DNA of 17,888 nucleotides, from NCBI GenBank assembly GCA_048882385.1, contig JBHLRQ010000015.1:28733-46620 (forward strand), in the 5' to 3' direction. Of this stretch, positions 1 to 17,459 are shown piece after piece (position 1 is the stretch's first letter; each line of letters begins with the position of its first letter). This stretch comes from Candidatus Thorarchaeota archaeon. Its GTDB lineage: Archaea > Asgardarchaeota > Thorarchaeia > Thorarchaeales > Thorarchaeaceae. Both the position numbers and the translations under genes were made by a program. Under the pieces are notes generated by a model, which saw nothing but the letters and a program-made list of their open reading frames with translations, did not search any database and was not told the origin of the DNA.

Positions 1-100
1 TTCTCGAAGTAGACTAGACGGTCAACAGCATTCTCGAAGTAGACTAGACGGTCAACAGCATTCTCGAAGTAGACTAGACGGTCAACAGCGTTCTCGAAGT
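1..100. repeat. 30-bp tandem direct repeat (TTCTCGAAGTAGACTAGACGGTCAACAGCA) x3.3, coding; degenerate 27-bp units continue to ~200
   Basis: Units 1-30 and 31-60 are identical, 61-90 differs only at position 90, and 91-100 is a partial unit. No spacers. Each unit encodes 10 aa on the minus strand. Confidence 0.97.
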
Positions 101-389
101 GGAGCCGATCGACCATAGATACAATCACTATACGATCGACAGCGTTCTCAAAGTAGAGTCGATCGACAGAATTTTCAAAGTAGCTTCGATCAATCATAGA
201 AACTGGTCCAGTATCTAGGCACTGGGCAATTTCTTTGGTTTCTTCTGTGAAAAGACCATCTGGAGCTACAGCTATTGTGTTGTTCATACTCATCCAAGCC
301 ATTGCGATTAATGAACCAAAAACAGCGAGTGTAAGGACGAACAAGATTCCTGAAGCAAGTACAACCCTATAGGATTTTTTGGTAAACAT
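1..389 (-). CDS. Signal-peptide/TM-anchored protein with tandem 9-10 aa DR-ending repeats (3' end truncated by window edge); candidate multi-core precursor or repetitive surface protein
   Basis: Manual translation from ATG at 389, open to position 1: MFTKKSYRVVLASGILFVLTLAVFGSLIAMAWMSMNNTIAVAPDGLFTEETKEIAQCLDTGPVSMIDR-SYFENSVDR-LYFENAVDR-IVIVSMVDR-LHFENAVDR-LVYFENAVDR-LVYFENAVDR-LVYFE... Basic N-terminus plus ~22 hydrophobic residues. Purine-rich GGAGAAGA just upstream. Synonymous codon variation between units (GAT/GAC, CGA/CGT/CGG, TTT/TTC, GAA/GAG) supports this frame. Absent from the ORF track because no stop lies in the window. Confidence 0.88.
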   Translation of the reverse strand, partial: MFTKKSYRVVLASGILFVLTLAVFGSLIAMAWMSMNNTIAVAPDGLFTEETKEIAQCLDTGPVSMIDRSYFENSVDRLYFENAVDRIVIVSMVDRLHFENAVDRLVYFENAVDRLVYFENAVDRLVYFE

Positions 390-497
390 TTTCTATCTTC
401 TCCATTAGGTGTAAGGATTCAGTGACGATATTGTTGTGAAATTGATCAGTCCAGTTTTTACCAGACTGAAGATGTCATTGTTTTTCCAAATCACTCA

Positions 498-579
498 AAT
501 ACTACGAAATAGTATTACATGATACATGTAATATATTTTTCGGTAACACTATTTACAATAGAAAGATATATTACGTAAT
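498..579. promoter_or_regulatory. AT-rich cluster of overlapping inverted repeats upstream of the DR-repeat gene (probable promoter/operator)
   Basis: AATACTA-N5-TAGTATT (498-516), TATTACATG-N3-CATGTAATA (513-533), GTAATATAT (528-536) / ATATATTAC (566-574), and palindrome ATTACGTAAT (570-579). The minus strand reads GAAAAATATATTAC, which is BRE/TATA-like. Confidence 0.5.
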
Positions 580-595
580 TATGTTACAATAATCA

Positions 596-669
596 AGAAG
601 TCCCCCGGTCATGAAGATTGGAAATGTTCTCCTTCTTTCTGTTCTCAACGGGGTGGACGGGGGATTTCT
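596..669 (-). terminator. GC-rich long-loop inverted repeat immediately after the radical SAM stop codon (possible terminator or RNA-processing element)
   Basis: AGAAGTCCCCCGGTC (596-610) pairs with GACGGGGGATTTCT (656-669) with one mismatch and one bulge, enclosing ~45 nt. No clear U-tract follows. Confidence 0.35.
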
Positions 670-2490
670 CTACTCCTTTTCCTTCCGTTTTATTTGTCTG
701 CGGAGTTCAGCAATCTCAAAACTGAGTTCTGTGTAGGCTATTGCGTCTGTTTCCTCATTCCAGAAGATGAATATCGTTCGTGGTTGTTTGTCAAGCTTGT
801 TAGGATTGTAATCATGACCCATGATTCTATTCATGTGCTCAATCGGATGATACCAGGTTTCGATAAACTTACTGTGATCAGGTTTTCGTCTGGCAACTTC
901 AGCAAAAGCAATTTCTGCTTCAACGATTGCGTCATAAAGAAGTTCATTGTCATTATCATCCCTTAAGAGCTCGATGACCAAATCTCTGATAGACTCCATC
1001 ATTTCTCGATAATCAATCTCTGGCCATTTCAATTCAGGAATTCCAATTTCTTCAAGCTTATCAATCAACCTTTGAGCTAACTTGTTTCCCAGAATCGAAT
1101 ATGCGAATTGTATACTGCAAGTAGATAGAGAGTCAACTATCTGTCCCAAATAGACTTGTCGAATGATATTCTCTCTTTTCATTGATGGAGTATTAATGTA
1201 GTAGTAGTTGGGAAATATATCTGGGTGTGTTTTGATCATGGTCCGAAGTTCAGTCCAACTGATTGGTGGAAAGTCAGAATGTCCTGGGCCACCGTAGTCA
1301 TCATACTCTAGGTATTCTTTCATTGTTTCAAACAGTTGTGAGCCTGGTTCGGGAACAAGAGAATGTATCTGAATGAGAATATTTAGTGGATGAATCGATT
1401 TCGCATGTATCACGAACTCCCACAATTCTACAATATCCGCTATTTTTTCCTCAGGAAATCCAACTACGAAGGATAGCGTAATTCTGAAACCCAAATCTGC
1501 AGCAACCCGTAGGATTTCATCAATATTTGTCAGGTCTAATCTTTTGTTTATCCTACTTTGTAATCTGTCTGATACAGTTTCTATTCCCAGATAGATACTG
1601 TCACAGCCAGCCTGTCTCATCTTCTTAAGAATCTCTTCATCCAGAGTATCCAATCTCGCACTACAGCTCCAAGCAATTGGAGTTTCTATTAATACTAGAC
1701 CGTCACATAGAGAGAACATATAATCCCGATTAAATGTCAACAAGTCGTGATTCAGTTTGATTCTTTTGTGTCTGAATTTCTTTTGTATGACTCGAATCTC
1801 CTCAATCACTCGTTCAACAGATTTAACTCGAAACCTCCTCTTGAAGAAACTTGAGGTTGAACAAAATATGCAGGCAAATGGACAACCTCTTCCTACTTCG
1901 AGAGTCACAGGTTCATCACTGTTCTCATCTTCTTCACAGACAGCATAATCTGGAATCGGGAGTGAATTCAAGTCCTTAATTGGATCAGGCCAACCATTAT
2001 CTAAAATCTTGACTCCGTTTCGATGCACGACACCTTTGATATTGGTAAAATCTTCTCCCTGTATCATTTGATTGACCAACATAGGTAATGCGAAATCCGA
2101 TTCACCACGAATAATGAAATCCACATCCTCAAATAGTGACATTATGTTGCCCGCACTAAATGAAGCTCCTGGACCTCCCAGAATCGTTTTTGTCATTGGA
2201 TTCATTTCTTTGACTTTACGACAAACATCCAATGCCATTACTATATTGTTGGACATGGTTGAAAGGCCTAGTAGATCGGGTTTTGTAGATAATATCTTCC
2301 CAACTATCTCTTCCATTATTTGCTTGTAATCCGAAAAAGCCGTTATCGAATAGTTTGCTAAGTCGAGTATTTCAACATCAATGTTTACTGATTTCAGAGC
2401 TGATGAGAGAGTCAAAATTCCTAAGCATCTGTGGATTGGTACACGAGTTTCCATTGAAATCTGATGAATGGCTACCAATGTAATCTTCAA
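670..2490 (-). CDS. B12 (cobalamin)-binding domain radical SAM protein (class B radical SAM methyltransferase-like)
   Basis: N-terminal B12-binding-type motifs KPDLLGLST, ILGGPGAS and VDFIIRGESD. CxxxCxxC motif in GRGCPFACIFC. Also AGCDSIYLGIET, FVVGFPEE and PEPGSQLF, followed by a long C-terminal extension. TTG start preceded by GAGAAGA. Confidence 0.93.
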   Translation of the reverse strand: MKITLVAIHQISMETRVPIHRCLGILTLSSALKSVNIDVEILDLANYSITAFSDYKQIMEEIVGKILSTKPDLLGLSTMSNNIVMALDVCRKVKEMNPMTKTILGGPGASFSAGNIMSLFEDVDFIIRGESDFALPMLVNQMIQGEDFTNIKGVVHRNGVKILDNGWPDPIKDLNSLPIPDYAVCEEDENSDEPVTLEVGRGCPFACIFCSTSSFFKRRFRVKSVERVIEEIRVIQKKFRHKRIKLNHDLLTFNRDYMFSLCDGLVLIETPIAWSCSARLDTLDEEILKKMRQAGCDSIYLGIETVSDRLQSRINKRLDLTNIDEILRVAADLGFRITLSFVVGFPEEKIADIVELWEFVIHAKSIHPLNILIQIHSLVPEPGSQLFETMKEYLEYDDYGGPGHSDFPPISWTELRTMIKTHPDIFPNYYYINTPSMKRENIIRQVYLGQIVDSLSTCSIQFAYSILGNKLAQRLIDKLEEIGIPELKWPEIDYREMMESIRDLVIELLRDDNDNELLYDAIVEAEIAFAEVARRKPDHSKFIETWYHPIEHMNRIMGHDYNPNKLDKQPRTIFIFWNEETDAIAYTELSFEIAELRRQIKRKEKE

Positions 2491-2597
2491 TTGAATCTTC
2501 TCTGTTTATCGATTCACAGCAGAAACTCGAGTCATTATCATATTTCCGTTGTAATCCAATCCGTGTCTTTGGTTGGTTCTCATTAGACTATAGATAT

Positions 2598-2831
2598 TCA
2601 CCTATCAGTAACGCCCAGTGTTCTACTGATGCCACCTAGGCCATCTTCTAGTTCAGATATTGTCGTGGCAGCTCTACAAAGAAGATCGATTACTCTCATT
2701 TCCTCTTCGGTCAAATCTCTCTGCAGTCTTTCCATGACCTCTTCTCTATTTTGACACACATTTTTACGGAACTTGGGATCTCTGATCATCCGTTCTATTA
2801 GAACATCAATTGATACCGGAACTTTGCTCAT
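2598..2831 (-). CDS. Small NHLP-clan/Os1348-like leader protein; putative RiPP precursor (77 aa)
   Basis: The likely start is the ATG at 2831 (GGAAGGTG upstream) rather than 2864. MSKVPVSIDVLIERMIRDPKFRKNVCQNREEVMERLQRDLTEEEMRVIDLL matches the remembered NHLP/Os1348 pattern LIxRxxxDxxFRxxxxxxxEE...LTxEE. It ends ELEDGLGG-ISRTLGVTDR and lies directly upstream of the radical SAM gene. Confidence 0.75.
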   Translation of the reverse strand: MSKVPVSIDVLIERMIRDPKFRKNVCQNREEVMERLQRDLTEEEMRVIDLLCRAATTISELEDGLGGISRTLGVTDR

Positions 2832-3006
2832 TACATACACCTTCCATTTACGCGGAGTGGACAATCATTTTTGTAGCCTTGAGGTTGGTAATATATTCTT
2901 ACAAATCGAGCTTATACACATTAATCATAGATTTCTTTGTTCGAAAGACTCATCTCAAAGATAATTGATAGATTGCAGTTACAAAGTAACTGGTGAGGGA
3001 GCAGGC

Positions 3007-4503
3007 TTGAAGCCACTAGGAACAATCACTATGCATCTAAAGTTCTTAGACCAAGAGGCAAGTGAAGTTCTCACTTCAATCATGAACGATGCTGAGAATT
3101 ACTGTGACTTTGTAGTCCAACTGGGTAACTGTGTATACCAGATTGAAGCCCCAATTGAACTTGCTCATATAGCATCTGTCCATGCTTGGGAGCTTAGAGA
3201 TACAGCTGTTATTGATGATATATCCAGTAAATATGGTGGCCACCCGTTTGTTAAACCCTGGACATATCCTATTAGAAGCAGAGGTGATCGACTCTCACAT
3301 TCTCACAAGATTCAGGATGCTGTTGATCATGCGATTACGTTGAAGCCTGCAGATTGGATTCATGCGGAGCTTTTACTGGTAAAAGCATATGCACTCTTAC
3401 ATACTCCTGATGGGATTGTTGCTCTTCAGGCAGCGAAAGATATCATTGATGTAAACAAAGACTTGGATTGTTACAAACCACAGGTTCATCACATCGAAGG
3501 AAGAATTCATCATGAAGAGGGAAATAACCAGTTGGGAATACCAATATGCAAAGTAGGTCTTGAACTTGCTTTGGCTCAAGATAACAAATGCCAAGCCATC
3601 TGGTTGCTCCGTTGGCTAGGTATGCTGTCAATGCATGATGACCTGAAACAAGCCTCGGCATATCTTGATCATGGATATTCGCTCGCTAAGGAACTTGGTG
3701 CACCCTTTCATTTGGAACATGTCCTAACAGAGATGGGGTGGATATCCACAATATTGGGGGAGTATGATCTTGCTCTGGCGTTCTATGATGAGGCAAGAAA
3801 AATGTCCATTTCACAAGATGAGTTGACAGACCGTCACTCACTCATTCTTTCACGAATTTGCAGTGACATATGTGATGGAATTCAAGCCCTTGATTGGGCA
3901 CAGTGGACATTGGACTGGCATTTGTCTCATGGTTCTGCAGGTGATTCTTACGCCCATCTTGCTATGGCTCGTGCTCTGATACTTCTAAACAGATTTGATG
4001 AAGCAAGGGAGTATCTCGACACAGGTGGAAAGCTTGCATTTCAAGGAGGACAGGAACGAGAGGTGTGCATCTACTATTTGGTTTCTGGTCTTTATGAAAC
4101 AGCCACTGGTTCTCCAGCGGATGCCATCGCTACCATCAAGAATGCGCTGGAGATATGCGAAAGAACAGAAACAGCGATTTATCGTAATAGATGCCTCTTA
4201 GGCCTGGCTCAGGCAGAACTAGCTGTATTCCAGCTGGAAGGAGGGGATGATACAGGTGAATCTCCAGGAAGTTGGATGAACTACTTGGAAGAAAAAGCAC
4301 TTGAACATAATCTTCCCGGCCTACTTATGCAGCATAGAATGCTGCTAGCTGATTTTCGATTATTACAGAATCGCATTCCAGAAGCTCGAAAAATACTGAT
4401 TGACGCCTTAGATTTATACGATTCTCCAGGTGTTCGAACTCTTCAGAGGCTGATTCTCGAAAAGATACGATCAATTGATACAAGAAAACAAATTGTGAGC
4501 TAA
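3007..4503 (+). CDS. TPR-like helical repeat protein (Thorarchaeia-type 'KPLGTIT' family)
   Basis: Helical repeats such as LGEYDLALAFYDEA, MARALILLNRFDEAREYL and AIATIKNALEIC. Probable TTG start at 3007 after GGTGAGGGAG; the ORF track starts it at 2965. Confidence 0.8.
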   Translation: MKPLGTITMHLKFLDQEASEVLTSIMNDAENYCDFVVQLGNCVYQIEAPIELAHIASVHAWELRDTAVIDDISSKYGGHPFVKPWTYPIRSRGDRLSHSHKIQDAVDHAITLKPADWIHAELLLVKAYALLHTPDGIVALQAAKDIIDVNKDLDCYKPQVHHIEGRIHHEEGNNQLGIPICKVGLELALAQDNKCQAIWLLRWLGMLSMHDDLKQASAYLDHGYSLAKELGAPFHLEHVLTEMGWISTILGEYDLALAFYDEARKMSISQDELTDRHSLILSRICSDICDGIQALDWAQWTLDWHLSHGSAGDSYAHLAMARALILLNRFDEAREYLDTGGKLAFQGGQEREVCIYYLVSGLYETATGSPADAIATIKNALEICERTETAIYRNRCLLGLAQAELAVFQLEGGDDTGESPGSWMNYLEEKALEHNLPGLLMQHRMLLADFRLLQNRIPEARKILIDALDLYDSPGVRTLQRLILEKIRSIDTRKQIVS

Positions 4504-4620: not shown

Positions 4621-5076
4621 TCATGAGGCCTCTTTGAACTTCTTCGGAAAGGGAATCCTGGGAGAGCTCTCTCCTCTGCCATGTTCCGGTGGTGGTTTCC
4701 AGTCCTCAGTCATTTTGAGGTATTCCGCCCTTTCTGCAGCATCATGTAGTTCCATTACTGTTGCAACGTGGTTTCCACTTTCATCTCGAAGTGGATAGAT
4801 ATACTCGTAAAAATATCTGCCAATGAAGTGGACCCACCCCTCGTACTTTTCAAGATCCCCACTCTTCAGGTCATTAATCATCTTCATAACACCTAGCTCT
4901 GCTCTTTCGGGATGACATCGTAGAATGGACGAACCGATTCTGCTCTCATTGTCCTGTTGGAGCTGCTCACCAGCTTTTCGATTGAAGACCACGATATTGT
5001 TGTTTTTGTCAAGAACACATATTCCAACATTGAGGTCATCAACAAGTCGCTGCATCAACAATAAATCAAGAGTCAT
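4621..5076 (-). CDS. Stand-alone PAS domain protein (CHP-motif type, as in DUF438-associated PAS domains)
   Basis: GICVLDKNNNIVVFNRKA and RIGSSILRCHP, with C-terminal YPLRDESGNHVATVMELHD forming the PAC-like strands. No output domain. Confidence 0.85.
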   Translation of the reverse strand: MTLDLLLMQRLVDDLNVGICVLDKNNNIVVFNRKAGEQLQQDNESRIGSSILRCHPERAELGVMKMINDLKSGDLEKYEGWVHFIGRYFYEYIYPLRDESGNHVATVMELHDAAERAEYLKMTEDWKPPPEHGRGESSPRIPFPKKFKEAS

Positions 5077-5156
5077 GTTCCTACATACTGCAAACAGTGT
5101 GAAAATCTTTGGGTTACGTTTGATTTATGTTGAAGAGTCAACAACAACAACGAGTT

Positions 5157-5870
5157 ATGGGAGAATTCTATTCAAGACTTGGCAGGTATTATGATCAGTT
5201 TTATGTTCACATCGACTATGAGGGCAACAGTCGCAGGCTCCATGAGATAATTCAGAGATTCAAGAAGTCTCGAGGTAATTCGTTATTGGATGTTGCATGT
5301 GGAACAGGCACTCATATCAAACATCTCAAGGACTGGTATCACCCCACGGGACTCGATCTCGTTGAGAGTATGCTGGAGGTTGCAAAAGAGAAATGTCCCG
5401 ATATTGAGTTTTTCCAAGGCAATATGACTGACTTTGATCTTGGACGCATGTTCGATGTCATAACCTGTCTATTTGGGTCAATTGGCTATCTCACCGAGAG
5501 GAACGATCTTGAAAACGCAATTGCATCGTTCTCCAGACACACGGAACAGGGTGGAATCCTGGTTATCGAGCCCATGTTCACTAAAGAGTCAGTCCGAGAG
5601 GGATCGATTGGAATCACCAGTCTGGATCTGCCTGATATTAAAATCTCACGTGTCAACTCCACACAGATTGAGGGTGCTGTTGCTTATCTCAATTTTCACT
5701 TTCTGATTGCCACCCGAGAGAATGGTGTTGAACACTTTATCGACCCCAGCCCAATGAGTATCTTCTCCAGGGATTTGTACATCTCTCTAATGGAGAAGCA
5801 TGGATTCGAAACAGAGTTCTTGGAACCTGGTTTGATGAAAGAAGGCTTGTTTTTGGGTGTCAAACAGTAA
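5157..5870 (+). CDS. Class I SAM-dependent methyltransferase (TylM1/DesVI-like N-methyltransferase family resemblance)
   Basis: SLLDVACGTGTH (motif I), FDVITCLFGSIGYL and GGILVIEP. The start may be 5157 or the upstream ATG at 5127. Confidence 0.88.
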   Translation: MGEFYSRLGRYYDQFYVHIDYEGNSRRLHEIIQRFKKSRGNSLLDVACGTGTHIKHLKDWYHPTGLDLVESMLEVAKEKCPDIEFFQGNMTDFDLGRMFDVITCLFGSIGYLTERNDLENAIASFSRHTEQGGILVIEPMFTKESVREGSIGITSLDLPDIKISRVNSTQIEGAVAYLNFHFLIATRENGVEHFIDPSPMSIFSRDLYISLMEKHGFETEFLEPGLMKEGLFLGVKQ

Positions 5871-8188: not shown

Positions 8189-8980
8189 TTGATTGCAGAT
8201 TTACCATCTGAGCTCAGAGAGTCTGGTGCAGTCGAAATCAGGACAAAACTCGGAACCATCTCTGGGGGTGATGTACTAGATGTGGGTACAGATGATGGCG
8301 ATTTCATTAGAGTCCTAATGAAAACTCTGAAGGACTACAAATCATTCACTGGAATCGACATCTCAGACGAGGAATTGGAAAAAGCCAGAAACCAATTCAA
8401 AGATGCTCCAGTGGAACTCATGGTAATGAATGCTGAATCTATGGTATTCAAGGATAACCAATTCGATACTGTATGCATGTCTTATACAATTCATCACTTA
8501 GAGAATATTGATGCTGTGTTGACCGAGATGCATCGTGTGGTAAAGCCTGGTGGTCATTTCATTATTCAAGAGATGTATGCTGATGGAGAACAGACTGCAG
8601 CTCAGCTTGTGGACAGGGACGTACACCATTTGGAAGTGAAGGTTGATTCCCTATCAGGCATTCCTCATTTCGAAACACTGACCCGAAAGAGATTGCGAAA
8701 ATTAGTCGATAGACTTGGTCTAAACGACACAGAAGTGTTCGAGTCCAAATGGGCTGTAAAATGTCTATTCTGTAAGGAATCACAAGCCTGTCAAAATCCA
8801 ACGAGGTCTGAGAATGTAGATTCTGTTCTCAAGCAAATTGATGATGCATTGAACAGATCTCGGGAGTATTCATCATATACGGATCTGAAAGCTGAAGCTG
8901 AATCTTTGAAGAAGAGACTGAAGATTCATGGATCATCTGCAGCATCTGTGATTTACTTCTTCGGGACTAAAGGGAAATAA
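8189..8980 (+). CDS. Class I SAM-dependent methyltransferase (Methyltransf_11/31-like)
   Basis: VLDVGTDDG, GIDISDEEL, FKDNQFDTV, TIHHLEN and EMHRVVKPGG. C-terminal CxxC-x4-C. Confidence 0.9.
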   Translation: MIADLPSELRESGAVEIRTKLGTISGGDVLDVGTDDGDFIRVLMKTLKDYKSFTGIDISDEELEKARNQFKDAPVELMVMNAESMVFKDNQFDTVCMSYTIHHLENIDAVLTEMHRVVKPGGHFIIQEMYADGEQTAAQLVDRDVHHLEVKVDSLSGIPHFETLTRKRLRKLVDRLGLNDTEVFESKWAVKCLFCKESQACQNPTRSENVDSVLKQIDDALNRSREYSSYTDLKAEAESLKKRLKIHGSSAASVIYFFGTKGK

Positions 8981-9017: not shown

Positions 9018-10157
9018 TCAACGTTCCTTCACTTTTCGCCACACTATTAGAATTACAAGTCCTACAAGAGCTACTGACCCAGATAGAGCCGCAAATAATG
9101 CTAAATCAAAAACTCCTGTTGTCTGTGCATTTCCAATTTGAAGTATCTCTAGACCATCTTCTCCATCTGCAACATAGATTAGCTCATCGACTATTGCTAT
9201 ACCTGATGCACTCCCGCCATCATAATAATTTCCAACTTCAGTGACGTTGGACAAATCATTGATATCCAGAATTTCCAATCCCTCTTCTCTGTCAGCAATA
9301 AATGCATAATCATTATAGAATTCTAAATCAACCGAATGTCCTCCATCATTGTGACTATAGATCTCTGTAAGTGAAAGAGGATTGCTAATATTGAAGACCT
9401 TCACACCACCATATGAACACATCATATACGCAATATCTCCAACGAAATCGATGGAAAAAACTTCACCATCTATAGGAAACTCCGCGAGCTCTTGGATATT
9501 TGAGAGATCCGAGATATTTAGAACTATTAACGACTTCTGTGTCGCAGAAATGAAATCTGATACATATGCCAAATCATTGTTTATTTCAACATTGAAGATG
9601 TAGCTGATCCCCGTATTGTATTGATATATCTCCGTAGGATCAGTAGGATCTGAAATATTCACTATTTCAAGTCCATCCTCAAAGTCTGCTATGAAGGCAA
9701 GGTCTTCGTAAATATCGAATGTACCGACTTCTCCGCCATCGTGACATAATCCTACCTGAGTCGGGTTGATAGAATCTGAGATGTTGATAACTTTGAATCC
9801 TTCAGTATAATCTGCTATGTAAGCTAAATCTTCATCGACATACAATTCATGAATATGATCAATTCCTTCATCGAATCTACTCAATTCTGTTGGATTTTCT
9901 GGGTCAGAAACATCAATTATGCACAGACCACTATCGGAGTCTGCAACGATAGCAACACCATCTTTCACATGTATGCTTGCAGCGAATCCACTTGTATTCA
10001 ACTGTCCAATCTCTGTTATTACGAGAGTCTGTGTTTCTTGAGCACTTGCTATATTTCCTGCATTGATGTTCACAAGAATCGAGATTACAAGGATGCTAAT
10101 TGTTAAAATTCCTGTTTTTCTCATGCTGTTCACATTCCAATACGGTACCTCCTTCAT
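9018..10157 (-). CDS. LVIVD-repeat (beta-propeller) cell-surface protein with signal peptide and C-terminal TM anchor
   Basis: About seven ~43-aa repeats of the type AYIADxxxGLxIxNISDPxNP. N-terminal hydrophobic segment (alternative start 10124). C-terminal TM followed by WRKVKER. Confidence 0.92.
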   Translation of the reverse strand: MKEVPYWNVNSMRKTGILTISILVISILVNINAGNIASAQETQTLVITEIGQLNTSGFAASIHVKDGVAIVADSDSGLCIIDVSDPENPTELSRFDEGIDHIHELYVDEDLAYIADYTEGFKVINISDSINPTQVGLCHDGGEVGTFDIYEDLAFIADFEDGLEIVNISDPTDPTEIYQYNTGISYIFNVEINNDLAYVSDFISATQKSLIVLNISDLSNIQELAEFPIDGEVFSIDFVGDIAYMMCSYGGVKVFNISNPLSLTEIYSHNDGGHSVDLEFYNDYAFIADREEGLEILDINDLSNVTEVGNYYDGGSASGIAIVDELIYVADGEDGLEILQIGNAQTTGVFDLALFAALSGSVALVGLVILIVWRKVKER

Positions 10158-12477: not shown

Positions 12478-13434
12478 GTGGTGAGTAGATTGGATCCCCT
12501 AGACTGGGCTTTGATATGTGAACTGTGCGGCAATGCAAGGATGCCGTATAAAACACTCGCAAAGAAATTCGATATTTCAACTAATACAGTCAAGAACCGT
12601 ATCATCAGACTTCGTAAGCAAGGAGTGATTAAGAAATTTGGCGTTTGTGTAAGCTTTGAAACGCTTGGCGCTGAAAGCGTAGCTGGTTTTGTTATTACTG
12701 ATGGATCCGAGAATGTGATAGAGCTAATGGAACAAATCGCCGACCAGCCTATGATTTGTGAAATCTATCGTACTAGTGATCGCCGTTATGAGTATCATGC
12801 AATGGTGTTGGGAGCAGGTGAAACTCTTGGACTCAAACGGCTCTTAAGTAATCTTGATGGTGTAATTGATGTGGAAATGAGACCCATTGTCCTTCAATTT
12901 CCTAACAAACCGCCTACTTATCCTGGTAATACACGAGGGAAGAGAGTCACATTCACCCGCGATCAATTACGTGTTCTGAAAGCGCTGACAATAGACTCTC
13001 GACTGCCTGTTTCCAAGATTACTCAAGAAACAGGATTCACTCCCAGACGAGTACGGAAAATCCTCCGGAATCTGCAAGAAGGTGGTGGTGTCCATACCTA
13101 TGCCATTTACAATGCATATGCGTTGGGAGATATGGAATACCGAATGAGAATCAGCTATGACGATGCAAAAACGACAGGTCAGAGCATCATAATGGAGCTG
13201 TACGACAAGTATCCAGAACTATTCTGGTGGGGAAGCATCACCACCAATGAACCAATCGTTGATGTGGGTCTGATCATTGATCGTCCCGGTAAAGGTCCGC
13301 CAATTGCTGCTGAGATTAAAGCAGCTGCTTATACCAAGTCTGTAGAGGACTTTGTATCCTATCCTAGGGTTGTTGCTAGTGTCAACAGGCTCAATGCTCA
13401 TCTATGGGATTTGATTCATGAGGCTGAGCTTTGA
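12478..13434 (+). CDS. Lrp/AsnC-family transcriptional regulator with two tandem wHTH modules
   Basis: LDPLDWALICEL...ARMPYKTLAKKFDISTNTVKNRIIRLRKQGVI, and a second module DQLRVLKALTIDSRLPVSKITQETGFTPRRVRKILRNL. Confidence 0.92.
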   Translation: MVSRLDPLDWALICELCGNARMPYKTLAKKFDISTNTVKNRIIRLRKQGVIKKFGVCVSFETLGAESVAGFVITDGSENVIELMEQIADQPMICEIYRTSDRRYEYHAMVLGAGETLGLKRLLSNLDGVIDVEMRPIVLQFPNKPPTYPGNTRGKRVTFTRDQLRVLKALTIDSRLPVSKITQETGFTPRRVRKILRNLQEGGGVHTYAIYNAYALGDMEYRMRISYDDAKTTGQSIIMELYDKYPELFWWGSITTNEPIVDVGLIIDRPGKGPPIAAEIKAAAYTKSVEDFVSYPRVVASVNRLNAHLWDLIHEAEL

Positions 13435-16400
13435 TCTTCACTAATCGATATTATTCTCTCCATACTCCTTGAATGTTGAATTGGGGCTATTCGTTCGAAT
13501 GGCCGATGATTGAATCGTCGTTTCCGCCAGATATATTGTCCTGCAAAGACAGAATATAGAAGAATCACAGCTCCAAATCCTGCCAGTATAAACAGCACTA
13601 GAGTATCAGATCCGGAAGCACTGGGCGGGTCAATATGATACTGTATCAAGCTACGTGCTCTTACAGGATTCCCTTCTCCAGAGGAAGCCTCACCTACAAC
13701 AAGATAGATGCCCTTTTGCCAAATGCCTTCAGCTACATAGTAGGCTATCGTTTCCGGTGACCGATAGAGGTAGACTCCAGGTTCAATCTCTGACATGATC
13801 ACTGTCCAGAAGAGGTTTCCATCCGGGTCATAGATTCTAAGCTCGATGTACGCCCCTGAGATAGGCTCGCCAGTTTCATCGAATGTGAGCAATGCTCCTA
13901 TCTGTATTGGAACCTCCTCAGTGTCTGGGTAGTCGAAGTTCCCATTGAGTTCAAGCGACCATTGCACACTCAGCGAATCTACAACTGTTATGGTGAATAT
14001 TGCCGTTAGAATACCGACATAGATACCATAGGGTGCAAGCCACTCATCAACAAAAACCGAGTAGATGTTCTCCACACCCACCTCAACTCTATACGTTCCA
14101 ACAGGTAATTGCATTAGGTCAGTGATTCTTCCCTCATGATTGATAGCAAAGTGTTCCGTGTCATTAATCCACCAAGACTCAACCGGTGGATCGTGTGAAC
14201 CAGCTTCAAGGTCAAGGTCAAGGTTGAGCAATGCGAGGCGTTGACCAAACTCAAGAGTAAAATCATTGAGAGGCGCCAACCATCTTGATTTTGAGTAGTA
14301 AACAAGCGGATGTGGGTCCACACTGCCTGCCTCTCCAGGAATGTTGTATGGGGTATCCCCTATACCATCACCGTCATTGTCAGGTCCCACATATTCAGAA
14401 TAGTAGTTGTAATAGAAATCGTTCAGAGTTCCAACTACATTTTCTTGAACATCATGTTCGGAACTCTCAGCAAAAGTATTCCACCAAACCACTATGTAAT
14501 CTGATGAGGTGATGAATAGACCGAATTTATTTCCAATGCAAATATCATAATAGACTCTGTTATCATCCGAGTATCTGATCGAGATGCCAGCGTCTGCATT
14601 GCCATTGCAGGTGTTTTCCTGTACTCTGTTACCATTTGAATTTTCGAGTTTGATGCCACGGACGTTGTCATCACAGGTATTTCCATCCAGAATATTGCTA
14701 TCTGCTCTATCAAGGCGGATACCGTTATCCTCGTTGTAAGTGCAGGTATTTCCTTCAAGCGTGTTGCCAGTTGAGTAGTAGAGGACAACGCCGTCTTCCC
14801 AATTGTGCAGGCAGGTGTTTCCATCCAGCGTGTTGATATGTGAATAATTAATCACAATCCCATGGTTTTCGTTGACATTACAGGTGTTTCCAGAAAGCGT
14901 GTTATGATGTGAGTCCCAGAGGTAGATACCATAGTCGTTGACATTACAGGTGTTTCCAGAAAGTGTGTTCCAGTCTGAGTAACAGAGGTAGATGCCAAAC
15001 TTGTTGTTATTGCAGGTGTTTCCAGAAAGCGTGTTGCCATGCGATTCATCGAGGTATATTGCATGAAGAAAGCTACTGCAGCTGTTGCCGTCCAGAGTGT
15101 TTTCATTTGATAATAAAAGAAGTATGGCATTAGGGTATCCATCGCAGGTGTTCCCTGACAGCATGTTACCATCCGACTCTTCGAGGTAGATACCATAATC
15201 TGAGTTGCCAGTGCAGATGTTTCCAGAAAGCGTGTTTCCATCCGACTCTTCGAGGTAGATACCATAATCTGAGTTGCCAGTGCAGATGTTTCCAGAAAGC
15301 GTGTTTCCATCTGATCTATAGAAGATGTAGATGCCGTCTTCGTCATTATCACTGCAGGTGTTGCCGTCCAGCGTGTTTCCATGCGAAAGATGTGGGCGAA
15401 TACCATAGGTATTGTCACTGCAGGTGTTGCCAGAGAGTGTGTTGTCATTTGAAGAAACGAGGTCGATACCTATCATATTATTAGCATTACAGGTGTTTCC
15501 ATCCAGCGTGTTTCCATGCGATTGATGTAGGCAAATACCATTGATATTGTCACTGCAGGTGTTGCCAGAGAGTATGTTTTCATCCGAGTATGAGAGGATG
15601 ATGCCTTCCCCATCCTCTTCAACAAGGTTAACATTTTCGTTGCAGGTGTTACCAGAGAGTGTGTTCTCATTTGAAGAATAGAGGCGGATGCCTCTCATAA
15701 TATTGGCATCACAGGTGTTTCCATCCAGTGTGTTGCTTTCTGAGTAAAAGAGGTAGATACCATTTTCATTGTAACTACAGGTGTTCCCGATTAGCGAGTT
15801 GCCATTCGATTCTTCGAGGTAGATGCCATAGTCGTTGTCAGTGCAGGTGTTCCCGATTAGCGTATTGTCATCGGAGTCACTGACAAAGATGCCGTTCGCA
15901 TTGGCTTTACAAAGATTCTCCAGAATCTGGTTCCCGGTACTCTCCCCTCTAACGGCAATACCACATAGAGCATTCTCACTGCAGTTGTTATCCGTCAGAA
16001 CATTATCAATGCCTAGCCAAAGGTTGATTCCCGCTTGAGGATTAATGAAGCAATGATTATGAATGATCCTGTTGTCAAAAGCTCCAATCCCAACACCAAT
16101 ACCACTCCACCCGTTGTCAAAGCATTCGTTGTCCTTCACTATATTTAGCGTGCTTGAATAGAGTACAGCTATACCTTCCAAGAAGTTGTCACTGCAGGTG
16201 TTTCCGTCCAACATGTTGATATTCGATTCTTCGAGGCAGATGCCATAGTCGTTGTCAGTGCAGGTGTTCCCGATTAGCGTATTGTCATCGGAGTCACTGA
16301 CAAAGACGCCGTTCGCATTGGCTCTACAAAGATTCTCCTGAATCTGGTTCCCGGTACTCTCCCCTCTAATGGCAATACCCCATAGATTATTCCCGCTGCA

Positions 16401-17459
16401 GTCGTTATCCGTCAGAACATTGTCAATGCCTAGCCAAAGGTTGATTCCCGCTTGAGGATTATTGAAGCAGAAATTATGTCTAATCATGTTGTTATATGCT
16501 CCAATCCCAACACCGATACCACTCCATCCGTTGTCATAGCAACGATTGTTCCTCACCATGTTCTGTCTGCTCTCGTAAAGCACACCTATTCCTTCCCAAT
16601 TGTTACCTGAACAAGTATTATTTGCCACAACAATCGAATAAGCATCGTCAATTCGAATCCCATAGCAGTTGCCTATGCATGTATTGTTTGACACCCAGGT
16701 GCTATTGACAAATCTACCATAGTTCACGTTGTAGAGGTGAATGCCTGCACGCCAGTCAGGAGTCGCTCCTTGAAGAGTGCAGAAACGTATCCGGAAGAAG
16801 ATTTTGTCTATATTGTGAATCTCGATGCAGCTCCTGTCATCACCTCCCACATCGATGTCTAGACCTTCAATGAGGTAAGGGTCTTCCATTGTGCCTTCAC
16901 CGAGCCAGTCCTCCCTCTTGGCTTGTCTGTCGAAATCATCATCGCCTTGAATGAATATAGGGTCATGTGGCACCCCGAGTGGCGTGTCCTGAAGCGGAAT
17001 TGGAAGGAGCATATCAACTGCTCGCTGACTCATCCCATTCAGACTCGGCATAGGTGGCTGATAATCATATTCTGGCATAGTGACTGCGGGGCGTTGAATC
17101 TCAACATCTGGTGCGTTGATTATTGGATCCTGATGCCAATTTTCCAGCCTAGGTCGTGCAGAAATCAAGGTGAATTCGGATTGGATTTCATCAAGTTCTA
17201 TAGGTTGAAACTGTTGTAATTTTGCGGAACTTGCCTGTATCTCTACATTGTCTAGTGTAGCTCCTAGCATTGCATCTCCTGTGTCATCTGGCCAATATGC
17301 TGGTTGTGAGAATTCGTCTATTAATGGATAAGCTGCGACATGGAGGTCGTAGCTTCCCATCGGGGCTAGAAACAGACCCAATCCTGTCAAAGATAGAATC
17401 ACACATAGAGAGCAAGCAAGTACTCGCAGTTTATTTTTTCTCATTACTGTTTCACTCAT
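13416..17459 (-). CDS. Large right-handed parallel beta-helix (NosD/PbH1 repeat) cell-surface protein with C-terminal Ig-like segments and TM anchor
   Basis: N-terminal signal/TM, then the GEGTMEDPYLIEGLDI cap motif. More than 30 repeats of 22-24 aa (GIxLxxSxxNTLxGNTCxxN). NosD terminal motif YYSEYVGPDNDGDGIGDTPYNIPG. C-terminal TM followed by WRKRR. Confidence 0.93.
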   Translation of the reverse strand: MSETVMRKNKLRVLACSLCVILSLTGLGLFLAPMGSYDLHVAAYPLIDEFSQPAYWPDDTGDAMLGATLDNVEIQASSAKLQQFQPIELDEIQSEFTLISARPRLENWHQDPIINAPDVEIQRPAVTMPEYDYQPPMPSLNGMSQRAVDMLLPIPLQDTPLGVPHDPIFIQGDDDFDRQAKREDWLGEGTMEDPYLIEGLDIDVGGDDRSCIEIHNIDKIFFRIRFCTLQGATPDWRAGIHLYNVNYGRFVNSTWVSNNTCIGNCYGIRIDDAYSIVVANNTCSGNNWEGIGVLYESRQNMVRNNRCYDNGWSGIGVGIGAYNNMIRHNFCFNNPQAGINLWLGIDNVLTDNDCSGNNLWGIAIRGESTGNQIQENLCRANANGVFVSDSDDNTLIGNTCTDNDYGICLEESNINMLDGNTCSDNFLEGIAVLYSSTLNIVKDNECFDNGWSGIGVGIGAFDNRIIHNHCFINPQAGINLWLGIDNVLTDNNCSENALCGIAVRGESTGNQILENLCKANANGIFVSDSDDNTLIGNTCTDNDYGIYLEESNGNSLIGNTCSYNENGIYLFYSESNTLDGNTCDANIMRGIRLYSSNENTLSGNTCNENVNLVEEDGEGIILSYSDENILSGNTCSDNINGICLHQSHGNTLDGNTCNANNMIGIDLVSSNDNTLSGNTCSDNTYGIRPHLSHGNTLDGNTCSDNDEDGIYIFYRSDGNTLSGNICTGNSDYGIYLEESDGNTLSGNICTGNSDYGIYLEESDGNMLSGNTCDGYPNAILLLLSNENTLDGNSCSSFLHAIYLDESHGNTLSGNTCNNNKFGIYLCYSDWNTLSGNTCNVNDYGIYLWDSHHNTLSGNTCNVNENHGIVINYSHINTLDGNTCLHNWEDGVVLYYSTGNTLEGNTCTYNEDNGIRLDRADSNILDGNTCDDNVRGIKLENSNGNRVQENTCNGNADAGISIRYSDDNRVYYDICIGNKFGLFITSSDYIVVWWNTFAESSEHDVQENVVGTLNDFYYNYYSEYVGPDNDGDGIGDTPYNIPGEAGSVDPHPLVYYSKSRWLAPLNDFTLEFGQRLALLNLDLDLEAGSHDPPVESWWINDTEHFAINHEGRITDLMQLPVGTYRVEVGVENIYSVFVDEWLAPYGIYVGILTAIFTITVVDSLSVQWSLELNGNFDYPDTEEVPIQIGALLTFDETGEPISGAYIELRIYDPDGNLFWTVIMSEIEPGVYLYRSPETIAYYVAEGIWQKGIYLVVGEASSGEGNPVRARSLIQYHIDPPSASGSDTLVLFILAGFGAVILLYSVFAGQYIWRKRRFNHRPFERIAPIQHSRSMERIISISEDQSSAS
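15169..15311. repeat. Perfect 69-bp tandem duplication inside the beta-helix gene
   Basis: The unit starting CCATCCGACTCTTCGAGG occurs at 15169 and 15238 with no mismatch seen. It encodes GNTLSGNICTGNSDYGIYLEESD twice. Confidence 0.93.
15804..16617. repeat. Imperfect 417-bp (139-aa, six-rung) tandem duplication inside the beta-helix gene
   Basis: ATTCGATTCTTCGAGG occurs at 15804 and 16221, and GCCATAGTCGTTGTCAGTG at 15825 and 16242 (offset 417). Protein blocks such as NPQAGINLWLGIDNVLTDN and VSDSDDNTLIGNTCTDNDYGI occur twice. End points are approximate. Confidence 0.9.

Follow-up and report, generated by a model that had tools for sequence, protein, structure and literature searches.

A small precursor-like gene and a B12-binding radical SAM enzyme gene as a candidate RiPP-like pair in Thorarchaeia

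Three consecutive minus-strand genes stand at the start of a 17,888-nucleotide stretch of a Candidatus Thorarchaeota contig, the whole of which we refer to as the window, and raise the question which of them act together and on what. The ORF list confirms all three (2598..2864, 670..2490 and 3..389), which a preliminary description had read as a gene for a small peptide, a gene for a B12-binding radical SAM enzyme (rSAM) and a gene for an exported repeat protein, linked by a DR motif in or next to which the enzyme would modify a residue. All sequences stem from metagenome-assembled genomes (MAGs).

The small gene and the radical SAM enzyme gene

The middle ORF (670..2490, minus strand, 606 aa) was correctly identified as a B12 radical SAM protein, since both Pfam domains score above their cut-offs: B12-binding (PF02310) with 56.7 bits against 32.1 over residues 20-136 and Radical_SAM (PF04055) with 81 bits against 29.5. 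The cysteines C203, C207 and C210 of the CxxxCxxC motif for the radical SAM [4Fe-4S] cluster (codons 1861..1884, minus strand) are invariant across a 42-sequence alignment of the clade, and the TTG start agrees with the aligned family N-terminus MK[VI]xL. Judged by its cluster motif and cobalamin domain, the enzyme belongs to class B of the radical SAM proteins. Close homologues carry the name Thorarchaeota, which makes an Asgard origin plausible, and the closest ones outside the clade are ApyD orthologues. The best NCBIfam match is likewise the ApyD model NF050148, which reaches 311 bits against a cut-off of 750 over model positions 20-472 of 645; four other clade members score 274-335 bits, and a Nitrospira orthologue that served as positive control scores 980 bits. 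TIGR03975 follows as the second-best match (134 bits, cut-off 282), TIGR04014 gives 100.7 bits (cut-off 360), and the enzyme also scores against the non-peptide class B enzymes BchE, HpnJ and HpnR. Residues 1-439 align with the ApyD orthologues at an HHalign probability of 100% (E 6.6e-89, 33% identity), whereas residues 440-606 (673..1173, minus strand) have no detectable homology to the C-terminal part of 31 ApyD orthologues (probability 1.7%). This clade-specific C-terminal domain is the predicted leader-binding domain, and its Atlas model resembles DUF4080 (TM 0.70) and the DUF2063/HvfC RiPP maturation proteins (TM 0.64-0.66).

The small gene on the same strand encodes 88 aa if translation starts from TTG (2598..2864) or 77 aa plus stop from the ATG at 2831 (2598..2831). 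A Shine-Dalgarno-like GGAAGGTG stands 5′ of this ATG, and the protein database entry (P0124) holds the 77-aa form. The protein possesses two helices, one leader-like at the N-terminus (about residues 8-25) and one around L40-TEEE, and its C-terminal tail is variable; in 13 sequences of the family the tails vary, and F21 of the first helix is kept in at least 90%. The alignment of the nine-member subfamily contains only two invariant columns, Thr75 and Asp76 (codons 2604..2609, minus strand), which we regard as the candidate modification site, and Asp is the last or second-last residue in 8/9 members. The translation does end in GG followed by ISRTLGVTDR, as described; P0139, the closest relative, has NT in place of the double glycine, which the other seven subfamily members lack as well, and the position of R77 is taken by W or H or is missing in the others. 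Tails of other clade members without Thr-Asp end in PPxWI, GLDP[QR]W or YFVRDF, among others. An aromatic residue does not occur in the tail of the window protein.

The leader had been called NHLP-type. What speaks for this assignment is a weak resemblance to the NHLP-clan model NF038399, which gives 22.7-23.1 bits against a cut-off of 40 for the small protein and matches 8/13 family members at E<=0.1, all of them below the curated cut-off, including the window protein with the best E-value of the family (5.6e-05). Against it, the NCBIfam scan with TIGR03793 returned no match at E<=1, and Pfam scans found neither a peptidase C39 nor an ABC transporter domain in any scanned window ORF, nor any other leader peptidase or exporter among these ORFs. 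One of the 13 family members matches Nif11 (E 0.005). The family is rare: a search of 1.84 billion representative proteins gave only 14 matches with E<=0.001.

The association of the small gene with the rSAM gene is strict. In 11/11 loci (9/9 Thorarchaeal loci and 2/2 from bacterial MAGs), the rSAM gene has a small ORF of the same strand upstream of it, which is its immediate neighbour in ten; at the Aminicenantes locus a gene for a predicted kumamolisin-type peptidase stands in between. The pair occurs in at least five different flanking contexts, and reading the Thorarchaeal loci with 1.5 kb flanks revealed no further ORF between the cassette genes. Among 400 genomes of the phylum, nine encode the rSAM, all of one family (8/85 other family members, 0/314 elsewhere). 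Of the 86 family genomes, a profile of the small protein matches exactly these nine, each time next to the rSAM gene, and none of the other 77. As the profile was built from the sequences that it recovers, its only informative part is the silence in these 77 genomes, which are incomplete MAGs (52-99% complete), and related genomes in such counts do not represent independent samples. The bacterial versions of the cassette adjoin STAND Ser/Thr kinases.

Divergently from the small gene, a TPR protein of 512 aa is encoded at 2965..4503 on the plus strand. Pfam TPR_12 scores above its cut-off and TPR_MalT below (33.7 bits against 45); the protein may start at residue 15, where its Atlas sequence begins. 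Among the 86 genomes, its six best non-self matches (41-55% identity, E<=1e-121) are all encoded beside an rSAM gene, and the best match away from any rSAM shows 35% identity (E 5.4e-87). By these comparisons, the TPR protein belongs to a large family of Thorarchaeal paralogues, of which it is the member specific to the cassette. The conserved unit is the small gene with the rSAM gene, joined in Thorarchaeia by the cognate TPR protein. Two genes for class I methyltransferases (5127..5870 and 8189..8980) lie beyond a PAS gene in the window.

The repeat protein and the shared DR dipeptide

The third minus-strand ORF (3..389) is open at the window start and represents the 5′ part of a gene for a predicted membrane-anchored tandem-repeat protein. 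Its N-terminus is basic, a long hydrophobic stretch follows, and then come units of 9-10 aa. The units that had been named (LVYFENAVDR, LYFENAVDR, IVIVSMVDR) are found in the translation; they correspond to DNA tandem repeats with periods of 30 and 27 nt. On the contig the gene covers L001 12328..13122, at least 264 codons. A run of 100 N (L001 12634-12733) interrupts it directly ahead of the first window base, so that this length is a minimum and the number of repeats can be given only provisionally. Between the repeat gene and the rSAM stop lies a 280-nt AT-rich spacer with TATA-like boxes, which suggests a promoter of its own and a separate transcript.

A three-way link between the small gene, the rSAM gene and the repeat gene does not hold up against the distribution of the latter. 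The repeat gene is present in 17/27 other genomes of the genus as compared to 4/27 for the rSAM gene, and 14 of these 17 genomes lack an rSAM match; in 9/9 rSAM-less loci that we read, it holds the same backbone site beside a small conserved gene to which no Pfam family matched. Conversely, it is absent downstream of the rSAM gene in 3/7 informative Thorarchaeal loci and in 2/2 bacterial loci. Three further genomes of the genus (L009, L010 and L011) have the order small gene, rSAM gene, repeat gene as well; since the genomic site and the genus are the same in all four, a single event probably underlies them. Of the two neighbours ascribed to the enzyme gene, its homologues thus keep the small gene throughout and the repeat gene in part of the loci. 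The repeat gene is a backbone gene of the genus that neighbours the cassette and lies outside it.

The shared dipeptide fares no better. The repeat protein of this genome contains 17 DR, whereas 4/17 homologues contain one and 13/17 none, the latter including all three other copies next to an rSAM gene, and DR-rich units were found only in this genome among the 17 homologues compared. The last ten residues of the small protein have DR as their only dipeptide, and no tripeptide, in common with the repeat region; at least one such common dipeptide is found for 48% of the 2599 long ORFs of this genome, DR falls within the last ten residues in 2.4% and forms the terminus in 0.31%. Moreover, tandem repeats can be read in any phase, and to let the units end in DR is a choice of register. 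The DR common to both proteins is no more than chance. Of the earlier proposal that a residue in or next to DR is modified, the part that stands is the invariant Thr75-Asp76, which may matter, whereas the Arg of DR is not conserved. What was most striking at first, namely the repeat protein and the DR common to both proteins, thus appears to be a coincidence of neighbourhood, and a misleading lead is avoided.

Proposed function and alternative explanations

From the observed gene content, conservation and co-occurrence and the homology of the catalytic part, we infer that the pair modifies a peptide, and we consider it rather probable that it consists of a RiPP-like precursor and its B12 radical SAM maturase, most likely C-methylating in or beside Thr75-Asp76. 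The 77-aa protein would be the precursor peptide, with its conserved N-terminal helices as the leader. This leader may dock on the C-terminal domain of the rSAM (residues ~440-606) and thereby bring the short variable tail to residues 1-439, the ApyD-like catalytic module. The enzyme would then most likely act as ApyD does and C-methylate an unactivated carbon of the invariant pair Thr75-Asp76 or of a neighbouring residue, with Thr75 as the first-guess site, followed by Val74 or Asp76. The repeat protein encoded downstream would be the product of an unrelated backbone gene, beside which the cassette sits in this genus.

Docking of the leader on the C-terminal domain is supported at the level of a model. 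Co-folding of the small protein with the rSAM yielded a score of 0.68, compared to 0.00 for the best of three controls, and passed a mark that is reached by 58/80 solved complexes and 2/110 mismatched pairs (rough counts; own alignments were used here). Three runs share at least 70% of the contacts with a partner pLDDT of 75-76, and the predicted interface comprises peptide residues 7-17 and 41-68 and enzyme residues 369, 454-458 and 526-604; residues 69-77 of the small protein are placed without confidence in this model, which is devoid of cofactors. As no solved structure matches the enzyme in sequence beyond profile position ~395, it is unlikely that the score reflects a memorised structure. 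Together with the conservation in 11/11 loci and the occurrence in the same 9/86 genomes, the co-fold supports the earlier view of the small gene and the rSAM gene as a precursor/maturase-like pair.

The explanation given in the preliminary description, in which the small peptide and the exported repeat protein are both substrates of an enzyme that recognises DR, or in which the small protein acts as a leader in trans, accounts for three co-directional, adjacent genes in the window and their identical order at L009, L010 and L011, and for a DR at the end of the small protein that is found again, 17 times, in the repeat protein. However, the co-linear cases probably reflect one event, the repeat protein occurs without an rSAM match in 14 genomes of the genus and the rSAM without a repeat neighbour at 3/7 informative Thorarchaeal and 2/2 bacterial loci, no DR is present in the repeat proteins encoded at the other three loci with an rSAM gene, and no tandem repeats could be read in the L011/L104 copy. 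In addition, R77 is not conserved and a common dipeptide is expected for nearly half of all ORFs, the spacer points to a separate transcript, and the repeat protein lacks a leader-like helix and appears to be exported, while radical SAM enzymes work in the cytoplasm. Conservation thus largely refutes this explanation as far as sequences can tell, and we regard it as extremely improbable; what had been set out as evidence against the whole system was found for the repeat protein and DR and not for the small gene. Alternatively, the small protein might be a binding partner of the rSAM (an activator, chaperone or regulator) with the true substrate encoded elsewhere, as the cassette lacks a protease and an exporter, the tails vary greatly between genera, the co-fold supports the helical part and not the tail, and the enzyme also scores against BchE, HpnJ and HpnR. 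We judge this unlikely. Conserved leaders followed by variable tails are typical of RiPP precursors, and the invariant Thr-Asp at the C-terminus speaks for selection acting on the tail. Moreover, both top NCBIfam matches represent RiPP enzymes, the closest outside homologues are ApyD orthologues, and two different precursor-like genes stand before one rSAM gene at L009 and L010, as in multi-precursor RiPP clusters.

The pair could also be a RiPP pair with another chemistry, for example a cross-link, a dehydrogenation or other rearrangement, or a methylation away from Thr-Asp. Class B enzymes catalyse several reaction types, which according to PMC10635010 include ring contraction and C-P, C-S and C-C bond formation; furthermore, the ApyD score lies far below its cut-off at 33% identity over the catalytic part, and other tails of the clade lack Thr-Asp. 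On the other hand, ApyD and TIGR03975, the top NCBIfam matches, both stand for RiPP C-methyltransferases, and the position of the invariant Thr-Asp mirrors the ApyD site before a C-terminal Asp, so that we hold another chemistry to be fairly unlikely.

C-methylation at Thr75-Asp76 by a precursor/maturase pair would lend itself to experiments: the cassette is minimal (one precursor and one enzyme), which makes co-expression easy, and the invariant C-terminal Thr-Asp provides a precise site for testing. The RRNPP class comprises bacterial TPR-type peptide receptors. By extension, the cassette could represent an archaeal peptide signal, probably of bacterial origin, in which the rSAM C-methylates the Thr-Asp end, the product carries, for example, a β-methylated Thr at the peptide end, and the TPR protein acts as cytoplasmic receptor. 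This reading as a whole is very unlikely in our estimate; if true, it would mean peptide-based signalling in an Asgard archaeon. We know of no RiPP precedent for β-methylated Thr and, to our knowledge, archaeal RiPP pathways are barely charted. Full-text searches with partial coverage did not turn up any B12 radical SAM system for peptides described from Asgard archaea.

Comparison with known systems

Mmp10 and the MCR glutamine C-methyltransferase, both archaeal B12 radical SAM enzymes, add methyl groups to sp3 carbons of one protein, methyl-coenzyme M reductase, and do so without a leader peptide. The rSAM is likewise an archaeal B12-binding radical SAM protein and matches TIGR04014, though well under the cut-off, and in contrast to these enzymes it co-occurs strictly with a dedicated small gene. 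TIGR03793 and TIGR03975 represent proteusin/NHLP systems, for example the precursor PoyA and its two class B radical SAM C-methyltransferases, PoyB and PoyC. The cassette has in common with these systems a class B radical SAM maturase and a long helical leader ahead of a short core, as reflected in the weak matches to NF038399 and TIGR03975. Unlike in proteusin systems, however, these matches stay below the cut-offs (23 against 40 and 134 against 282 bits) with TIGR03793 silent, GG is not conserved, a C39/ABC exporter is missing from the window, and the putative core spans ~10 residues instead of a long poly-modified peptide. With DUF2063/HvfC and DUF4080, the similarity concerns the C-terminal domain: residues 440-606 superpose at TM 0.64-0.70 and hold the leader in the co-fold, although this compares predicted structures only, Pfam finds no sequence match and the domain is fused to the enzyme here.

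The closest comparison is ApyD from the aminopyruvatide pathway of Burkholderia thailandensis. In PMC10635010, ApyD is termed RRE-containing and adds 14 Da to the penultimate Tyr of a GYLYD C-terminus, the product being β-methyltyrosine by NMR; it hence methylates the β-carbon of the residue before the C-terminal Asp. ApyD and the rSAM share the class B radical SAM type, a RiPP setting (for the rSAM a probable one) and a homologous catalytic module of ~440 residues (33% identity), and just as the ApyD site precedes a C-terminal Asp, the small proteins keep an invariant C-terminal Thr-Asp. A point against our preferred reading is the lack of an aromatic residue in this tail, whereas the known target of ApyD is Tyr. 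The precursor family and the archaeal host also differ, there is no Tyr at the candidate site, and the Pfam scan of the window ORFs found no MNIO (DUF692) with partner, cytochrome P450 or ApyS methyltransferase. With 311 bits, the rSAM ranks far under the equivalog cut-off of 750, and its C-terminal domain is unrelated to that of ApyD. Judging from the models, the cassette couples an ApyD-like catalytic module with a different, predicted leader-binding domain and a rare precursor family.

The radical SAM enzyme and its ApyD-like module

The B12 radical SAM gene (670..2490, minus strand) encodes a protein of 606 aa in which the Pfam domains B12-binding and Radical_SAM both score above their cut-offs. 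In an alignment of 42 clade sequences, drawn from the 48 best matches of the enzyme (P0008, P0010, P0015, P0020, P0024 and P0045 were left out), the cysteines of the CxxxCxxC motif are invariant. The top NCBIfam match is ApyD (NF050148), the B12 radical SAM C-methyltransferase of the aminopyruvatide RiPP pathway, with 311 bits (cut-off 750) over model positions 20–472 of 645, followed by TIGR03975 (RiPP C-methyltransferases) with 134 bits against 282. As a positive control, a Nitrospira locus whose adjoining ORF is MNIO-like by reading its sequence yielded 980 bits on the ApyD model. Database matches ranked below the clade (P0049 onward) are mostly full-length ApyD orthologues. Residues 1–439 of our enzyme are homologous to ApyD (HHalign probability 100%, E 6.6e-89, 33% identity), and for residues 440–606 the same comparison detected no homology to ApyD (probability 1.7%). 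PMC10635010 describes for ApyD a mass shift of +14 Da on the penultimate tyrosine of a GYLYD C-terminus, the product being (2S,3R)-beta-methyltyrosine by NMR; the work used E. coli with a cobalamin-uptake (btu) plasmid, Fe-S helper genes and supplied cobalamin.

The genome of the window, which itself spans C15:28733-46620, harbors four more B12-binding radical SAM paralogues with 26–32% identity (C54:17849-18829, C28:6404-7510, C46:156-638 and C61:5233-6207). Elsewhere, a small ORF of another kind, with EIKIEVP/EIRVEIP and LTEEQ among its motifs, precedes the genes for ApyD-like enzymes in Acidobacteriota and two Methanosarcina MAGs (loci L019, L021, L023, L024 and L040); it probably represents a further family of precursors for this enzyme superfamily.

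The small gene and its predicted docking to the enzyme

The small gene (2598..2831, minus strand) encodes 77 aa if translation begins at the ATG at 2831, or 88 aa with the TTG at 2864 as start; the protein database entry P0124 corresponds to the 77-aa form, and a GGAAGGTG stretch lies just ahead of the ATG. A preliminary description had combined this gene, the radical SAM gene and a repeat-protein gene into one system, and its account of three consecutive minus-strand genes, including their ORFs, the C-terminal GG followed by ISRTLGVTDR and the units of 9–10 residues, is accurate. Its expectation that homologues keep the small gene next to the enzyme was likewise borne out, as a small ORF on the same strand lies upstream of the radical SAM gene in 9/9 Thorarchaeal and 2/2 bacterial loci. 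A profile of the small proteins matches exactly the nine radical SAM-bearing genomes among 86, each time beside the enzyme gene, and none of the 77 others; since the profile was built from 13 of these same proteins, the matches are expected by construction, and it is the lack of matches in the other genomes that carries information. This is a rare family, with 9 matches at E≤0.001 in a collection of 5.8 billion proteins and 14 matches among 1.84 billion representatives.

The 13 aligned small proteins have in common an N-terminal helix that follows the pattern I..RLL.D..FR, with F21 kept in at least 90% of them, and a second, acidic helix; their tails vary. The small protein had been proposed to carry an NHLP-type leader. 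This holds as a remote resemblance to the NHLP-clan model NF038399, which 8/13 small proteins match at E≤0.1, but not as membership, because the window protein, with the best E-value among them, reaches 23.1 bits where the cut-off is 40. The Nif11 leader model is matched by 1/13. In the nine-member subfamily that includes the window protein, Thr75 and Asp76 are the only invariant columns, and in eight of the nine the aspartate occupies the final or penultimate position. Other branches end in PPxWI (in L009 and L010, from a second precursor gene), YFVRDF... or, in bacteria, GLDP[QR]W. The double glycine was considered as a cleavage site and rejected, as it is not conserved among the small proteins; the nearest relative of the window protein carries NT in its place.

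This second precursor-like gene forms a tandem pair with the first (L009 889..1140, plus strand; L010 3658..3915, minus strand), and its type (P0122, P0123, P0126, P0127 and P0129) combines the same kind of N-terminal helix with a tail end of PPxWI or PPTYI. In the window, a spacer of only 133 nt leaves no space for a gene of this type.

When the enzyme and the small protein were co-folded using their two family alignments, the median run scored 0.68, while three controls reached 0.00 at best. In the calibration of such co-folds, 58/80 solved complexes and 2/110 mismatched pairs attained the mark, counts that apply only roughly here owing to the use of our own alignments. The three runs have at least 70% of their contacts in common, with a partner pLDDT of 75–76. 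In the predicted complex, peptide residues 7–17 and 41–68, forming two helices and a linker, contact enzyme residues 369, 454–458 and 526–604, which puts the enzyme side of the modelled interface on the C-terminal domain specific to the clade; for the tail of the small protein (69–77) the placement is not confident. Beyond profile position ~395 no solved structure matches the enzyme by sequence. For comparing the domain we relied on the Atlas model of the enzyme (pTM 0.79) and on the co-fold. In the Atlas model, residues 440–606 resemble DUF4080 (TM 0.70) as well as the DUF2063/HvfC RiPP maturation proteins (TM 0.64–0.66), likenesses of predicted structure that we regard as leads and not as proof. 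The possibility that the small ORF is spurious was rejected, as it is conserved, is matched by the profile and passes the co-fold.

Four DNA runs were compared with the window. Run X5 yielded one contig identical over 639..3000, and run X9 gave several pieces within 238..3000, none of which differs by more than one letter. Where the runs give cover, the small gene shows no variants, and they therefore permit no reading of selection. The identical X5 contig stops at 639, a 13-kb contig of the same run overlaps the window at 639..668 only and a third covers 489..668 with 16 differences, so that the assembly graph branches just 3′ of the radical SAM stop codon, which may reflect a cassette boundary or strain variation. 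A sigma-70 promoter and terminator scan found 12 sites versus 9.2 expected and is uninformative for an archaeon.

Distribution and genomic neighbours

All data stem from MAGs, and related genomes are non-independent samples. The closest homologues of the enzyme that bear a name are labelled Candidatus Thorarchaeota. Across 400 genomes of the phylum (E≤1e-60), the enzyme is confined to the window's own family, where 8/85 other members carry it as opposed to 0/314 genomes outside. Together with the names of the homologues, this gives good support to a Thorarchaeal, and hence Asgard, origin of the window. Among the best 80 loci listed from a scan of genome contigs with the clade alignment, only L017, L018 and L079 fall in the clade, the remaining ones being ApyD-like or more distant; 16 of the loci were read and served as context only. 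A metagenome scan with the single protein returned 19 loci, all distant (23–29% identity), and these were set aside. In a quick tree with SH-aLRT support and midpoint root, in which most rows are without names, the 42-member clade is monophyletic (support 100), every named Thorarchaeal row lies inside one subclade of 23 rows (support 88) and three named bacterial rows lie outside it. This midpoint-rooted topology hints at a transfer from bacteria.

The two bacterial loci, L017 (Aminicenantes) and L018 (Acidobacteria), each have a very large, divergent STAND protein of the Ser/Thr kinase-AAA_16 type, which in L018 also has GAF and SpoIIE domains. Their precursors end in GLDPQW and GLDPRW. In L017 a kumamolisin-type peptidase gene (pro-kumamolisin/S8-type) lies between the small gene and the radical SAM gene.

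In the window, a TPR protein of 512 aa (2965..4503, plus strand) is encoded divergently from the cassette genes. Its paralogue family occurs in 60/86 genomes of the family, and a single genome can have as many as 17 matches. The six closest matches other than the protein itself (41–55% identity) all adjoin a radical SAM gene, and the best match away from one has 35% identity. In Thorarchaeia the pair is thus accompanied by a cassette-specific TPR orthologue. The TPR gene is divergent and upstream in 7/8 informative loci, and L014 has a more distant paralogue downstream. The position is taken in the bacterial loci by the kinase-STAND proteins, to which BLASTP showed no homology of the window TPR protein (best E 0.42 and 1.5). 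An Atlas search with the TPR protein returned generic TPR clusters only, the first at 0.90 (possibly its own cluster) and the rest below 0.9. As a guess, the TPR protein may be a regulator or receptor. Copies of the family often form tandem arrays of 3–4 genes (e.g. G354:C48:333-6323 and G343:C33:20304-24756), and in-frame stops (TGA, TAA or TAG) occur in several, which may be pseudogenes or of some other nature.

The repeat protein (3..389, minus strand) has a basic start, a long hydrophobic segment and then units of 9–10 residues that correspond to tandem repeats in the DNA with periods of 30 and 27 nt. On the contig (L001 12328..13122) the gene comprises at least 264 codons and is interrupted by a run of N that ends one base before the window; the repeat array is collapsed by this 100-N gap. 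The repeat protein had been proposed as the third member of the system, linked by a DR motif, and neither proposal held. Homologues of its 64-aa N-terminal anchor occur in 17/27 other genomes of the genus and 1/58 elsewhere in the family. The radical SAM enzyme is present in only 4/27 other genus genomes, so that 14 carry the anchored protein without a radical SAM match, although single absences prove little because these MAGs are incomplete. In 9/9 loci read without the enzyme (L098, L100, L102, L105, L106, L108, L110, L112 and L113), the anchored gene has as a neighbour one and the same small conserved gene, which encodes ~110 aa and belongs to no Pfam family; no radical SAM gene occurs within 1.5 kb in any of them. 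On the far side of the anchored gene, L098, L100, L105 and L108 have a membrane-protein gene and then a PAS gene (4621..5076 in the window); in the window, L009, L010 and L011, this side is instead separated from the anchored gene by the block of radical SAM, small gene(s) and TPR gene. The arrangement appears to reflect a single insertion or replacement at a single site within one genus. The anchored gene is found at 4/7 informative Thorarchaeal radical SAM loci, all four in one genus, and the downstream neighbours of the enzyme differ outside the genus (L012, L013, L014) and at both bacterial loci. The repeat protein is a backbone gene outside the system.

DR is the sole dipeptide common to the last ten residues of the small protein and the repeat region, with no tripeptide in common; of the 2599 long ORFs in the window genome, 48% have at least one dipeptide of their last ten residues in common with the repeat region. 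The repeat protein of the window genome contains DR 17 times, its BLASTP-picked homologues (17 of 18 non-self loci, L111 left out) not at all in 13/17 and once in 4/17. DR is absent from all three other repeat proteins adjoining a radical SAM gene, one of which has no tandem repeats by reading, and in the nine-member subfamily of small proteins the final arginine is replaced by tryptophan or histidine or is absent.

The anchored family (window 3..389; L001; L098–L115) evolves fast in the genus, keeping the signal-anchor while the repeats are quite different (DFRLDPGETVSI-type, RVDPNTVRILDY-type, DYRDAVRVI-type or none), and its gene keeps its place beside the ~110-aa gene and a hydrogenase-like operon. 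Elsewhere the window encodes an LVIVD-repeat beta-propeller protein (9018..10157, minus strand) and a NosD/right-handed beta-helix protein of 1347 aa (13416..17459, minus strand), both probably surface proteins.

Candidate chemistry and relation to known systems

We consider it probable that the small gene and the radical SAM gene form a precursor/maturase pair. In the mechanism we propose, the leader helices would dock on the C-terminal domain of the enzyme, allowing the tail to reach the ApyD-like active site. Hydrogen abstraction by a 5′-deoxyadenosyl radical and methyl donation by methylcobalamin are established class B chemistry; here, the radical would abstract hydrogen from an sp3 carbon and methylcobalamin may supply the methyl group. 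C-methylation is put forward tentatively, its chances being somewhat below even. The modification would most likely occur at or beside Thr75-Asp76, by analogy with ApyD, which acts on the residue before a C-terminal aspartate; that Thr75 itself is the site is rather doubtful. Neither a peptidase nor a transporter was found in the Thorarchaeal cassette when the window ORFs were scanned and the loci read.

Full-text searches of a partial library on Asgard and archaeal RiPP radical SAM enzymes turned up no description of this cassette, which a genome-mining table could list, and passages of PMC13635244 contain nothing on such a system. Compared with known systems, the catalytic module is known, and we regard the predicted recognition domain, the rare precursor family and the host lineage as new.
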